A DNA stretch of 64,000 nt from Minisyncoccota bacterium (GCA_035510575.1 DATKGV010000004.1:6839-70838); one strand, 5' to 3'; shown: positions 3,876 through 46,150, counted from the stretch's first letter. Made by a program: numbers and translations. The notes: a model not told the origin generated them from the letters alone.

Positions 3876-4748
3876 TTAAATAATCTCTCCCTTAAACACA
3901 AAAGTAGCGGGGCCACGGAGGATGACGTGGCCTTTGTCGTTTTGAGATAAGAATAATTTACCACCCGGAAATTCCAAAGTTACCTCACTTTGCGTTAGGT
4001 CTTGCCTAACGCTGTTTTTTGTAAGTATGGAATAAACTGCGCAAGCGCCAGTGCCACAGGCAAGAGTGGCACCACAACCGCGCTCCCAGACCTTCACTTT
4101 GTAATAATTATCCCCGCCTGCTCCCGAACTATCGTGAGGGCGGGCAGGATTTACTTTTTCAACTAATTCCATATTTATTTTGTTTGGGAAATTTTTATCA
4201 TTCTCAATTTTAGGACCAATTATTGAAAGGTTATATTTATTTAAATCATCAACAAGTCCGACAGCATGTGGATTACCCATTGATACAAATTCAAATAAAA
4301 TATTTTCAAGTTCCATTGGATTAGCAGGGAAGTCGTTATGAGCAAATACAGGCGCACCCATATCAACAGAATATGTCCCATCTTTATGGCATGTAATTTT
4401 CTTTATGCCAGCTCGCGTATCAATAAATAATTCTTCTTTAAATTGTGAGGTCTGTTCTAAGAAGAATTTCGCCACGCAACGCACCCCATTACCGCACATT
4501 TCAGCTGTTGTTCCATCGGAATTATAATAATTCATAAAACAATCAGCTTTATCCGATGATTCAACTAAAATTACACCATCAGCGCCTATTCCTAAATGCC
4601 TATCACATAAAAACTTTATATATTCAGGCGCAAAATTAACCACACCATTCATGTTATTTATCATGATGAAATCATTGCCGGCGCCGTGATATTTATAGAA
4701 ATTAATCATATATCTTTTATTATACCAATAAAATGGTATAATTATCAC
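3876..4748 (-). CDS. dapF: diaminopimelate epimerase, carrying two in-frame palindromic insertions
   Basis: FYKYHGAGNDFI and CGNGVRCVA DapF motifs, plus ERGCGATLACGTGACA. Contains element A1 (4112-4148, encodes PARPHDSSGAGGD) and B1 (3992-4012, encodes VRQDLTQ). Confidence 0.8.
   Translation of the reverse strand: MIIIPFYWYNKRYMINFYKYHGAGNDFIMINNMNGVVNFAPEYIKFLCDRHLGIGADGVILVESSDKADCFMNYYNSDGTTAEMCGNGVRCVAKFFLEQTSQFKEELFIDTRAGIKKITCHKDGTYSVDMGAPVFAHNDFPANPMELENILFEFVSMGNPHAVGLVDDLNKYNLSIIGPKIENDKNFPNKINMELVEKVNPARPHDSSGAGGDNYYKVKVWERGCGATLACGTGACAVYSILTKNSVRQDLTQSEVTLEFPGGKLFLSQNDKGHVILRGPATFVFKGEII
3992..4012. repeat. family B palindrome B1 (gcgttaggtcttgcctaacgc), in-frame in dapF
   Basis: Stem gcgttagg / cctaacgc around loop tcttgc. 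Encodes VRQDLTQ. Confidence 0.7.
4112..4148. repeat. GC-rich hairpin element A1 (family A), in-frame in dapF
   Basis: ccccgcctgctcccgaactatcgtgagggcgggcagg. Near-identical to 41008-41043 and the reverse complement of 21064-21103. Confidence 0.75.
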
Positions 4749-4750
4749 AT

Positions 4751-5182
4751 ATGAAAATCTACATTGGAGCAGATCATGCAGGATATGAATTAAAAGAAAA
4801 TCTTAAAACTTATTTAACAGGACTTGGTTTAGAGGTTATTGATAAGGGCGCATTTGAATTAAATAATAATGACGATTATCCTGATTTTATTACACCAGTA
4901 GCGGAAGCAGTAGCCAAAGAAGAAAGTTTCGGTGTTATTATCGGTGGTTCAGGCCAAGGTGAAGCTATGTGTGCCAATCGGGTAGCAGGCATTAGAGCTT
5001 CAGTTTATTATGGTCATTCTTTAGATATAATAAAAATAACAAGAGAGCATAATAATGCCAACATCCTTTCATTAGGCGCACGATTTATAACAATCGATGA
5101 AGCAAAAGAAGCTATCAAATTATTTATTGATACTAAATTTAGCGGTGACGAAAGGCACATTCGTAGAATTAGGAAATTTTAA
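4751..5182 (+). CDS. rpiB: ribose-5-phosphate isomerase B
   Basis: MKIYIGADHAGYELKENL... plus GGSGQGEAMCANR, typical of RpiB/LacAB. Confidence 0.85.
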   Translation: MKIYIGADHAGYELKENLKTYLTGLGLEVIDKGAFELNNNDDYPDFITPVAEAVAKEESFGVIIGGSGQGEAMCANRVAGIRASVYYGHSLDIIKITREHNNANILSLGARFITIDEAKEAIKLFIDTKFSGDERHIRRIRKF

Positions 5183-5185
5183 ATT

Positions 5186-5872
5186 ATGACAGAAATAATA
5201 CCGGCGATATTAGCCAAAGATTTTGAAGAATTGCGCGAAAAAATTTCACGATTTGCAAGTGTGGCGAGAACTGTGCAGATAGATGTCTGCGACGGCAAAT
5301 TTGTGCCATCTGTCTCATGGCCGATGCACGCAGGAGATAAAGAAAGCGTATCGGCAATAATAAATGAAGAAGAGGGTTTGCCATATTGGGATTCGCTTGA
5401 TTTTGAATTTGACTTAATGGTCAAAGATGCTCACAAGCAATTTGAATTTTTTACGCGGCTGGGAGCCAAAAGGATTGTTTTTCATTTGGAAGCAGAAGAT
5501 GAAAAAGACCTTAAAGAATTTTTGGAGGGTTTGGATATGTATACGAAAGAAAATATACAAATAGGTTTAGCTATCAATATCACGACAAATGTTGATAAAT
5601 TATTTCCCTTTATAAATCTGATTGATTTTGTGCAATGCATGGGAATAGATCATATTGGTTTTCAAGGCCAGCCCTTTGATGAACGCGACCTAAAACAGAT
5701 ATCAACATTGCGGGCAAATTATAGAGAACTTATAATAAGCGTAGACGGAGGCGTAAATAACCGCACAGCGCCTATGATGGTGAAAGCCGGAGCTAATAGA
5801 TTAATAGTAGGTTCAGCTCTCATCAACAGTCATGATATTTATGAGACAATCAAAGAATTAGAAAATTTATAA
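5186..5872 (+). CDS. rpe: ribulose-phosphate 3-epimerase family protein
   Basis: IIPAILAKDF ... QIDVCDGKFVPS resembles the RPE N-terminal motifs (IAPSILSADF / HVDVMDGHFVPN). 228 aa. Confidence 0.65.
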   Translation: MTEIIPAILAKDFEELREKISRFASVARTVQIDVCDGKFVPSVSWPMHAGDKESVSAIINEEEGLPYWDSLDFEFDLMVKDAHKQFEFFTRLGAKRIVFHLEAEDEKDLKEFLEGLDMYTKENIQIGLAINITTNVDKLFPFINLIDFVQCMGIDHIGFQGQPFDERDLKQISTLRANYRELIISVDGGVNNRTAPMMVKAGANRLIVGSALINSHDIYETIKELENL

Positions 5873-5873
5873 A

Positions 5874-44800: not shown

Positions 44801-44818
44801 CTAGCGCCTAGGCGCTAG
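44801..44818. repeat. perfect 18-nt palindrome ctagcgcctaggcgctag (family F) followed by ctagaa-type short repeats, in the atpF-atpE intergenic region
   Basis: Read directly. The related core cgcctaggcg recurs at 62981-62990 inside the uvrA N-terminal extension. Confidence 0.6.
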
Positions 44819-44852
44819 TTTTCACTAGAACCTAGAAACTAGAACCCAATTG

Positions 44853-45065
44853 CTATTGAATTGAAAATGCAATAACGAGGGCGTAAATTGCGATAGCTTC
44901 AGCGAATGCCGATGCGATAAGCATGGGAACTAAAATTTTTCCAGACGCTTCAGGGTTGCGACCAATCGCTTCCATGGCTCTTCCGCCGATAAGACCGACT
45001 CCTATGCCAGGACCGATAGCGCCCAAACCGATAGCGATTGCTTTTGCCAATGTGCCTAATTCCAT
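44853..45065 (-). CDS. atpE: Fo ATP synthase c subunit
   Basis: 70 aa helical hairpin. GRNPE loop and conserved acidic residue in helix 2 (AFAEAIAIY). Confidence 0.85.
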
Positions 45066-45120
45066 AAATTTTAATATTAATTATTAATAATATCGACTTT
45101 AATTTTATAAAAATAACTCC

Positions 45121-45200
45121 ATAAAAGATTGTTTTTACAAAAGTCCTCGGATCTCCTCGCGATTACACTCGGCCAGACTTTCCTAAAAACAATCTTTTAT
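45121..45200. repeat. about 80-nt palindromic element C1, between atpE and the atpB stop
   Basis: ataaaagattgtttttac aaaagtcctcggatctcctcgcgattacactcggccagac tttcctaaaaacaatcttttat. The outer arms are inverted repeats. The core recurs twice inside uvrC. Confidence 0.65.
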
Positions 45201-46150
45201 TACGTTACCATCATTTCCTTTTTTACATGTTCCCCGCCTGCATTGTCTTGCAAAGCATGGCGGGCAGGATGCTCTTCATGTTCATCATGATCTTGCGAAG
45301 CTATTGTAAAGTACACAAGCACTAAGATCGCAAAAATGAATGCCTGTATCACTCCCACAAAGATCTCAAGGAACAAGAACGGTATAGGAAGACCATATGC
45401 CAAAAGAGCGCTCATAGATACCAGAAGCACTTCGCCGGCAAAGACGTTCCCGAATAATCGGAACGAGAGCGAAGCAACCTTGGCAAATTCACCAATAAGC
45501 TCAAGCAAGCCCACAAAGAAAGTGACTGGAGCGACAATGATTATCATCGGATCTCGGCGAATATTGGTGAAAATGCCGCCAAGCGCCTTTATATTAACAT
45601 ATTTATTGAATGTTTTCCAAGCTCCGATGGAAACTATGCCGAATATATTGGCGCTTATAACAGACATTAATGATAAAGCCAAAGTTGTATTTATATCTGC
45701 CGTACCGCTTCGAATAAATGGCACAAAGGACAGGCCTTCACCGCCCTTCTCAATAAGGCCCAAGCCGCCTAATGGCAATATGCCCAGCCAATTATTTACA
45801 AGCACAAACATGAAAATTGAGAATGCCAATGGAAAAACTTTATTGGAAATCTTTCTGCTCCCGGTAACCTGATCACAAAGAGAAAGAGCGCCTTCAAGCA
45901 TGATTTCAAAAAAATTCTGAATGCCTTTCGGAATTTCTTTTAATTTAAAACGTATTCCCATAACCAATATAATTATAAAAAGAACGGCAGCCCAACTGGT
46001 TAAAAGCGCATTGGTAACGGGAAGAGGCCCGATATGCGCGACTGGCTCTGCATAAAGAGTAACTTCATGCGAAACTTCTGTTTGATTTTCATTAATTTGA
46101 TTTTCCATTTTTCTCTTTTTTTTCTGTCTGCGCAGGCAGGTCCTTTTCAA
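45200..46150 (-). CDS. atpB: Fo ATP synthase a subunit, with C-terminal in-frame hairpin insertion
   Basis: Polytopic; conserved R in ...FRLFGNVFAGE... True start is probably MENQ (46108). The C-terminal ...HPARHALQDNAGGEH... is encoded by element A5 (45232-45268). Confidence 0.8.
   Translation of the reverse strand: MKRTCLRRQKKKRKMENQINENQTEVSHEVTLYAEPVAHIGPLPVTNALLTSWAAVLFIIILVMGIRFKLKEIPKGIQNFFEIMLEGALSLCDQVTGSRKISNKVFPLAFSIFMFVLVNNWLGILPLGGLGLIEKGGEGLSFVPFIRSGTADINTTLALSLMSVISANIFGIVSIGAWKTFNKYVNIKALGGIFTNIRRDPMIIIVAPVTFFVGLLELIGEFAKVASLSFRLFGNVFAGEVLLVSMSALLAYGLPIPFLFLEIFVGVIQAFIFAILVLVYFTIASQDHDEHEEHPARHALQDNAGGEHVKKEMMVT
45232..45268. repeat. GC-rich hairpin element A5 (family A subtype ii), in-frame at the atpB C-terminus
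   Basis: ccccgcctgcattgtcttgcaaagcatggcgggcagg. Confidence 0.7.

Follow-up and report, generated by a model that had tools for sequence, protein, structure and literature searches.

The Rickettsia palindromic elements (RPEs), reportedly described by Ogata et al. in 2000 and 2002, are confined to Rickettsia; RPE-1 measures about 100-150 bp, and the short classes carry a CGTC tag. Short palindromes tagged with GTAG or CGTC, some of them inside open reading frames (ORFs) and read as amino acids, occur in genes such as those for UvrA, UvrB, UvrD and polymerases, with RPEs cited as documented precedent (Di Nocera et al. 2013, PMC3733652). Here we describe Family A, a hairpin with invariant ends and a variable interior, five copies of which lie in a 64,000-nt stretch of DNA from a Minisyncoccota bacterium (GCA_035510575.1, DATKGV010000004.1:6839-70838), hereafter the window. 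The AtpD protein of the window is 100% identical to that of a metagenome-assembled genome (MAG) of Candidatus Paceibacterota, which places the host in the Patescibacteria, or Candidate Phyla Radiation (CPR). We consider Family A to be a short non-autonomous mobile DNA hairpin of the kind represented by RPEs and by repetitive extragenic palindromes (REPs), with a probability of roughly 0.6. Searches of the literature by sequence and by topic returned nothing on these elements in CPR and only general REP and RPE precedent.

Copies and subtypes in the window

A search of the whole 64-kb window with the pattern CCCGCCNGC-N(14-26)-GGCGGGCAGG gives five matches, the number of copies put forward in the original prediction, which had been made from the sequence of the window. 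Four are on the plus strand, at 4113-4148 in dapF, 38932-38967 in an alkD-like gene, 41008-41043 in atpD and 45233-45268 in atpB, and one is on the minus strand, at 21054-21093, beside tRNA-Glu. None of 100 dinucleotide-preserving shuffles contains a single match (0/100), and relaxing the termini to at most two mismatches each reveals no sixth copy in the window. A scan for GC islands was too unspecific at the window's 40% GC and was not used to find copies. The tRNA-linked copy had been placed beforehand at 21064-21103, which is 10 nt off.

Read on the strand that starts with CCTG, each copy consists of a fixed 10-nt 5' end, CCTGCCCGCC, an interior of 11-23 nt and a fixed 9-nt 3' end, GCRGGCGGG. 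These 10 and 9 nt are invariant; the interiors vary by sub-lineage, yet keep an imperfect stem-loop. A sixth exact CCTGCCCGCC in the window, at 25440, is native coding sequence and does not belong to Family A; from its translated ..AGRGFSF motif, we take the gene to be RsmH/MraW.

The copies fall into two subtypes that share their termini and differ in the centre, distributed over the five sites just as had been proposed: subtype i in dapF, in atpD and beside tRNA-Glu, subtype ii in the alkD-like gene and in the atpB tail. The dapF copy lies in frame in a gene at 3876-4748 (minus strand) and encodes PARPHDSSGAGG. That in atpD (39945-41336, minus) is likewise in frame and supplies 12 residues, read in a frame that differs from that of the other three genic copies, in the linker that joins the N-terminal barrel to the nucleotide-binding domain. 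The subtype ii copies encode PARHASQGDAGG, in frame in the alkD-like DNA-alkylation-repair gene (38707-39480, minus), and PARHALQDNAGG, in frame in the C-terminal tail of atpB, the F0 subunit a gene (45200-46150, minus). The fifth copy is a subtype i element with a loop 4 nt longer; its CCTG strand is the plus strand, and it is non-coding, within a duplicated 5' fragment of tRNA-Glu. The four host genes match the Pfam families DAP_epimerase, DNA_alkylation, ATP-synt_A and ATP-synt_ab, and a small GIY-YIG nuclease is found beside tRNA-Glu. All four genes are on the minus strand, as are the CCTG strands of their elements, and therefore the elements read CCTGCCCGCC...GCRGGCGGG in the sense of the mRNA.

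Copy lengths are 36, 36, 36, 36 and 40 nt, and every intragenic copy is 36 nt long, so that DapF, AtpD, the AlkD-like protein and AtpB are each predicted from the sequence to gain 12 stop-free codons. The original prediction was right that the intragenic copies keep the frame, which holds for these four at 12 codons each, but had given one of them 37 nt. Its further suggestion that flanking sequence compensates for 37- and 40-nt copies must be dropped, since no 37-nt copy exists and the 40-nt copy lies outside any gene: rather than being intragenic, it sits 22 nt upstream of the GIY-YIG ORF, within a dead second copy of the tRNA-Glu 5' region.

Copies of Family A at unrelated loci of this one genome are identical at 34 of 36 positions (34/36). 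The atp region with the same two elements is also present in three independent metagenome assemblies (L001-L003), and because the same copies recur in them, the inserts are not an assembly artefact. Metagenomes that contain the organism are JGI 3300038473, ERZ28653749 and ERZ27254220. For a wider scan of viral and metagenome contigs we used the pattern CCTGCCCGCC-N(15-23)-GCRGGCGGG; all metagenome figures given below hold among the matches listed.

Filled and empty sites

The exact boundaries of the element can be read directly from the sequence at the tRNA-Glu duplicate (21040-21106, minus strand), where a copy of T plus the first 26 nt of tRNA-Glu (TGGCCTCATCGTC / TATCAGTTAGGACA) is split by the 40-nt element and thus constitutes a filled site. 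The intact tRNA-Glu(CTC) at 20718-20790 (minus), which begins (T)GGCCTCATCGTCTATCAGTTAGGACA, supplies in its 5' part the empty-site reference, and the small GIY-YIG nuclease ORF (20772-21032, minus) lies between the fragment and the intact gene; the order on the minus strand is TGGCCTCATCGTC, the 40 nt of the element, TATCAGTTAGGACA, the GIY-YIG ORF and intact tRNA-Glu. Excising exactly CCCGCC...GGCGGGCAGG restores the tRNA-Glu sequence, and shifting the boundary by one base either way fails to do so. Compared with the intact tRNA-Glu, the fragment has no target-site duplication.

Sites within genes tell the same story. The filled atpD site, GATGA, 36 nt, TGCTGG, contrasts with the empty IDD/AG.. 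or IDD/GK.. of relatives, and the closest AtpD homologues (88-90% identical, 451 aa) do not have the 12 residues. Alignment with solved F1-beta chains, from which the insert was placed, shows a 12-residue gap at the insertion point, in the linker after the N-terminal barrel; an AlphaFold model (pLDDT, the predicted local distance difference test score, of 49) was not used. The closest DapF homologue, P0241 (83% identical), is without PARPHDSSGAGG, and the atpB tail of the homologue in locus L256 carries no element. In L207, a Y1 transposase pseudogene regains the frame YPWTG/HSAILG once exactly 41 nt are taken out.

The original prediction had raised the matter of insertion-site preference and target-site duplication. 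Target-site duplication finds no support, and of a preference there is only a weak trace: across 78 distinct sites among the matches listed, we found no common flanking direct repeat and no complementarity between the flanks, and a weak preference for a purine at position -1 is accompanied by flank information of no more than 0.29 bit at any position. Together, these comparisons demonstrate that the Family A unit inserts precisely and whole, without duplicating its target, and that closely related lineages differ through its gain or loss, the insertions being either recent or polymorphic.

The 27-nt duplicate of the tRNA-Glu 5' end, the GIY-YIG ORF (21032-20772) and the intact tRNA-Glu look, as a group, like a mobile GIY-YIG cassette that inserted in, and regenerated, the tRNA gene. 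In tblastn searches we saw no consistent co-occurrence of the GIY-YIG gene with Family A elements. We also considered a tRNA mini-intron and rejected it: excising single elements gave no new tRNA prediction in any locus, and the multiple-of-3 rule (see below) argues against removal at the RNA level. Another tRNA-like arrangement is found in L154 (1440-1700), where a split tRNA-like gene with acceptor strands GCCGACG / CGTCGGC has Family A-type hairpins at the D-loop position in one half and the T-loop position in the other. Between the halves lies an intact tRNA-Thr, with CCCGCC...GGCGGG bracketing it in turn, and attempts to rebuild a clean tRNA from the split L154 gene failed. The 3' end of a tRNA-Arg gene in L149 directly adjoins a truncated copy.

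Different interiors at the same site

In more distant relatives, the orthologous sites are occupied by other interiors. Four different hairpins are found at the atpD GATGA site, in the window, L255, L256 and L258. Following GA(T/C)GA, L255 has CCTGCCTGCGCCGAACCTTCGGCAGGCAGG (30 nt), L256 a 36-nt hairpin, CCTGCCTG...CAGGCAGG, and L258 CCTGCCCGCTCCCGACCAGTCGGGAGGGCAGGCGGG (36 nt); a degenerate 72-nt version occupies the site in L257. At the dapF site, between AAAT and GAT, L263 has a 39-nt, subtype-ii-like element, CCTGCCCGCAATGCTTCTAGCATAGCTGATGCAGGCGGG, where the window has a 36-nt subtype i, and P0249, available as protein only, has PARPHEGAGG, which corresponds to 30 nt and is identical to the product encoded by a 30-nt variant in atpC of L258. 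In the atpB tail, the window carries subtype ii, whereas L006, a MAG of the Minisyncoccia, carries subtype i; the L006 copy differs from the dapF copy of the window at one position.

Because the orthologous atpD, dapF and atpB positions hold different interiors, these comparisons show that copies within one genome are more alike than copies at the orthologous site in other lineages, with the ends and the insertion point fixed. The original prediction had already voiced the idea of a modular element whose recognition ends are conserved and whose middle varies, and this is thereby borne out: the ends are invariant, the interiors differ and fold, and many other interiors are found in other organisms.

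Reading frame and orientation in genes

Frame and orientation were counted for distinct sites in contigs of at most 57% GC. Lengths that are multiples of 3 characterize 14 of the 16 sense copies deep in long ORFs, as opposed to 32 of 76 outside ORFs (Fisher p = 0.0017). In-frame genic copies measure 30, 36, 39 or 42 nt; intergenic ones are of any length from 35 to 42 nt. The single frame-breaking intragenic copy is the one in L207, in a pseudogene. This multiple-of-3 constraint indicates that the copies are not spliced out.

Orientation is also biased, with 16 sense and 3 antisense copies in long ORFs (p = 0.004), and several of the 'antisense' cases occur where the open frame has only just begun and probably precede the real start codon. 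Across uncultured bacteria, about 15 distinct sites fall within genes recognised by Pfam or NCBIfam; in each of them the coding strand is the one that starts with CCTG, and all three sense frames are used. These genes are those for an Ile/Val/Leu-type aminoacyl-tRNA synthetase (aaRS), ArgRS, TsaD, PurL, UvrD, a methyltransferase and a PriA-like protein, as well as atpB/C/D/F/G, dapF and the alkD-like gene. Stop codons are not the cause of the sense bias, since two of the three antisense frames of subtype i are open.

In the window, cumulative GC skew peaks at about 13-15 kb, with a sign switch near 14 kb, where the genes diverge. The switch could be replication terminus-like or a plain coding-strand effect.

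Hairpin structure and covariation

All five copies in the window fold as imperfect hairpins. On the sense strand, both subtypes share one layout, a 6-bp CCCGCC/GGCGGG stem followed by a 1-2-nt bulge, 3 bp, a 1x1 mismatch, 3-4 bp and a 4-5-nt loop, while the sequences of the inner stem differ between them. The ends can also pair in an alternative register, CCUGCC/GGCGGG with a G.U pair, and variants with R=G in the 3' end form a full 10-bp stem. In the wider scan, the self-complementarity of the interiors relative to shuffles has a mean z of -1.25 in low-GC contigs, against -0.40 for the chance matches of high-GC contigs.

Covariation of the stem, another point raised in the original prediction, was assessed in a gap-free alignment of seven subtype ii copies, and the outcome agrees with a conserved fold. 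In this alignment 94.5% of cells are paired, versus 36-48% when the partners are slid, and two pairs have changed on both sides (UA/AU and CG/UA), a covariation score that 3 of 500 shuffles reach. With this small sample, we regard the covariation as supportive rather than decisive. Rfam 15 has no match at E <= 1 to any element in nine element-bearing loci, among them L001, which contains the atp region of the window. Nor do the copies resemble intrinsic terminators: none of the five has a T run in its flanks, and four lie inside ORFs.

Distribution beyond the window

The matches of the wider scan form two classes, chance matches in contigs of more than 60% GC and many real-looking hairpins in contigs of 31-56% GC. 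Subtype ii recurs nearly unchanged in L233 (31% GC), in L183, in L194 (55% GC) and in a viral contig, L096 (63% GC); the L233 copy, in a methyltransferase gene, is a near-identical counterpart of that in the alkD-like gene. A very common relative of 37-41 nt, CCTGCCCGCCATCGC..GCTCAGGCGAGGCGGGCGGG, occurs in contigs encoding PFOR, fumarase, cardiolipin synthase, DinG and GlgA, which are from ordinary anaerobic bacteria and not from CPR. Intermediates such as CCTGCCCGCCATGCGAGACGCAAGGCGAGGCGGGCGGG bridge these relatives and subtype ii. In mid-GC contigs, the element is mostly intergenic and single. Head-to-tail adjacent elements with no spacer are seen in L149 (3773-3830) and L196 (3011-3083). 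Collections of plasmids and phages of cultured organisms gave weak chance matches or none.

Interpretation

Our reading of Family A as a mobile, REP/RPE-like hairpin draws on its precise insertion as a unit, its conserved ends, the hairpin kept across changing interiors, gain and loss between relatives, the similarity of copies within a genome, the occupation of junk DNA and the in-frame filter. In a genome with almost no intergenic space, the insertions that survive would be those that are a multiple of 3 in length, free of stop codons and located in surface loops, linkers or tails, where translation would extend the protein by 10-14 residues, with an abundance of Pro, Ala, Arg and Gly; in pseudogenes, tRNA remnants and spacers, an element of any length could persist. 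The likeliest mode of movement would be that of a single strand in its folded form, on which a structure-specific enzyme acts in trans, for example an HUH/Y1 transposase, either IS200-like or a REP-associated tyrosine transposase (RAYT). Such a single-stranded step, with a hairpin-specific enzyme supplied in trans, is favoured by the hairpin, the lack of target duplication, empty sites that appear clean and the strand bias, but we propose it tentatively and with low confidence because of the missing target motif and the negative RAYT test described next.

Several observations weigh against a mobile hairpin of this kind. By tblastn, there is no Y1/HUH gene in the 64-kb window, and the annotated ORFs of the window are housekeeping genes, type IV secretion pilins and a diversity-generating retroelement (DGR). 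The Paceibacterota relative L256 has a gene for a 222-aa Y1_Tnp protein with a sub-threshold RAYT match; this gene (14892-16098) is bracketed by an AT-rich hairpin of its own, AGGTTTAACCTATG, in three local copies. Family A-type hairpins lie in or beside RAYT-like Y1 pseudogenes in L207 (94-1100) and L206 (3789-4114), the former containing several further GC hairpins and following the 3' end of a GIY-YIG gene, but as pseudogenes these may be neutral landing sites. Many homologues of the repaired L207 Y1 protein are labelled 'REP element-mobilizing transposase RayT' by JGI, and Family A hairpins are absent from all four loci with intact homologues that were examined (L259-L262, 72 kb in total); from these loci and the window, the RAYT hypothesis gains no support. 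IS200/IS605 chemistry would predict a conserved tetra- or pentanucleotide ahead of the element, and the 78 sites among the matches listed show none; the GTAG/CGTC tag of known REPs is likewise absent, the ends being CCTG.../...CAGG in every copy. Near-identical subtype ii copies span contigs of 31-63% GC, unlike the usually species-specific REP families. The dapF gene is on the strand opposite to its neighbours, yet its copy is sense, and thus orientation may follow transcription rather than replication, although this is one case in which skew and coding strand are confounded. Finally, random transposition that lacks a target motif does not readily account for insertions recurring at the identical nucleotide in lineages far apart. 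A more far-reaching version of our reading would make Family A the CPR branch of an undescribed cross-phylum superfamily with CCTGCCCGCC...GCRGGCGGG ends, moved by a non-RAYT, end-recognising machinery that re-targets the same nucleotide, swaps the interior like a cassette and is coupled to transcription; such coupling would account for all intragenic copies being sense, but we consider this version doubtful.

Recurrence at one position is also a reason for regarding the copies as ancient relics, with one old insertion per site inherited vertically, hairpins kept, gene conversion or template switching within the genome and many losses. Identical nucleotide positions are indeed occupied in lineages whose proteins are only about 67-87% identical, no target motif accounts for repeated insertion there, and some AtpD homologues have apparently decayed inserts, such as LPAVEPLKTSGS and the 72-nt version of L257. 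We nevertheless find this history unlikely. For the nearest relatives to be empty, exact deletion would have to have happened many times, although no flanking repeats exist that could mediate it; the 19 terminal nt, third codon positions included, are unchanged where synonymous sites should be saturated; unrelated loci of one genome share 34 of 36 positions; and elements have entered young junk DNA, namely the tRNA fragment of the GIY-YIG cassette and the Y1 pseudogene. That last fact also bears on the proposal that the hairpin is a structured motif of benefit to its host, whether as a site of mRNA processing or stabilisation, a translational pause between domains or a protein-binding site. 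Such a role would fit the conservation of sequence across contigs of 31-63% GC, the sense orientation of all intragenic copies, the copies at domain boundaries (barrel and nucleotide-binding domain in AtpD, N-domain and catalytic domain in ArgRS, anticodon and C-terminal domains in an aaRS) and the 10-bp stem with a G.U pair that R=G variants form on the sense strand only. It becomes distinctly unlikely when close relatives lack the element at the same sites, when dead DNA carries it, when neither an Rfam match nor a common gene class or position rule is found, and when R=A variants are strand-symmetric.

Sense-only intragenic copies and the lack of target duplication would fit spread through RNA, in which the hairpin of a transcript is reverse-transcribed and integrated or is reverse-spliced into mRNA, and the window does encode a reverse transcriptase (28632-29663). 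This enzyme, however, belongs to a complete DGR with its own pair of template and variable repeats, no reverse transcriptase pathway is known to insert units of 36 nt, the genes nearest to the intergenic copy and to the L207 copy run antisense to them, and there are neither intron-like features nor an Rfam match; we judge spread through RNA very unlikely. Chance GC-rich coding similarity, the objection that the original prediction had foreseen, or an assembly artefact, we treat as refuted. The extra CCTGCCCGCC at 25440 is native, and many pattern matches above 60% GC do look like chance; against this stand the absence of even one match in 100 shuffles, the same ends around many other interiors in other organisms, the recurrence of the inserts in independent JGI, ENA and NCBI assemblies, and the fact that they are extra residues with respect to both homologues and solved structures.

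Other palindromes and neighbouring genes

Further perfect or near-perfect palindromes lie inside genes of the window, in uvrA (61917-61984), atpG (41969-42019, 51 nt), a methyltransferase gene (52328-52369, 42 nt), the alkD-like gene (39306-39340), the DGR reverse transcriptase gene (29075-29110, 36 nt) and dapF (about 3990-4012). The closest DapF homologues lack the last of these, GCGTTAGGCAAGACCTAACGC, whose translation is SVRQDLT. Coding sequence in the window has thus been colonised by several hairpin families, Family A among them. DapF proteins of other Paceibacterota have lineage-specific inserts elsewhere, for example KVDSTDSTDSPQAGSPQ, NADLSRRSQAK and LDISRTYGEMG, and AtpD homologues likewise have short lineage-specific inserts at other positions; these extra inserts may be encoded by yet other hairpin elements. 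The Y1_Tnp gene of L256, together with its AGGTTTAACCTATG hairpins, may be a separate IS200-like or REP-like system in CPR.

The DGR at 28632-30950 is complete, with the reverse transcriptase on the minus strand (28632-29663), an Avd-like ORF (29722-30030; sub-threshold match), a template repeat (30038-30161) and a variable repeat (30475-30600) inside an ORF at 30414-30950. The two repeats differ only at plus-strand T, that is, at A on the coding strand. At 49487-50907, three genes in tandem encode pilin-like proteins of type IV secretion (T4SS_pilin/TrbC).

Comparison with known systems

If the mobile reading of Family A is correct, it would be the third large instance, after the RPEs of Rickettsia and a few intragenic REPs, of selfish palindromes inside essential proteins, and would bring the phenomenon to the Candidate Phyla Radiation, whose tiny genomes have almost no non-coding room. 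It would account for many short lineage-specific insertions in CPR housekeeping proteins, such as DLPA...QAGG in ATP synthase beta, and would call for caution in alignment-based phylogeny of CPR organisms. A very short element with invariant ends, interchangeable interiors and clear filled and empty sites is also well suited to the search for a hairpin-moving enzyme.

Among described systems, the GC clusters of yeast mitochondria show target duplications, and the mitochondrial 'byp' elements are skipped by the ribosome. Like Family A, both are short GC-rich palindromes with conserved ends in a lower-GC genome, and some GC clusters lie in coding sequence; in contrast to Family A, they belong to eukaryotic organelles, and the multiple-of-3 rule of Family A argues for ordinary translation. 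Miniature inverted-repeat transposable elements of the terminal-inverted-repeat type measure 70-300 bp and have terminal inverted repeats and target-site duplications, whereas Family A measures 36-40 nt and duplicates nothing. With IS200/IS605 elements, Family A shares definition by a hairpin, the lack of target-site duplication, apparently clean empty sites and an orientation bias, but those elements have two distinct subterminal hairpins and insert 3' of a fixed tetra- or pentanucleotide, unlike the one hairpin and the undetectable target motif of Family A.

The likeness to REPs, and to the doublets they form (REPINs), is closer. All are GC-rich, imperfectly palindromic sequences of 20-40 nt that have a short conserved end and are dispersed, divided into sub-families and sometimes arranged head to tail, as in L149 and L196, and the Family A copies of mid-GC contigs are intergenic, as classical REPs are. 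Family A differs in ending with CCTG(CCCGCC) instead of GTAG or CGTC, in the absence of a RAYT gene flanked by its hairpins in the window and in L259-L262, in occurring as single copies and not as inverted doublets, with four of five intragenic in the window, and in having nearly the same sequence in very different organisms, whereas REP families are usually species-specific. Current REP/RAYT models leave two features unexplained, the re-use of the same site with different interiors and the near-identical copies in unrelated bacteria. With RPEs, Family A has in common the behaviour of a selfish palindrome that lies in frame in essential genes of a small, gene-dense genome, is tolerated in surface regions and is present or absent between relatives; going by the descriptions of size, tag and host, its 30-42 nt, its CCTG end, its apparently unrelated sequence and its Paceibacterota host set it apart.

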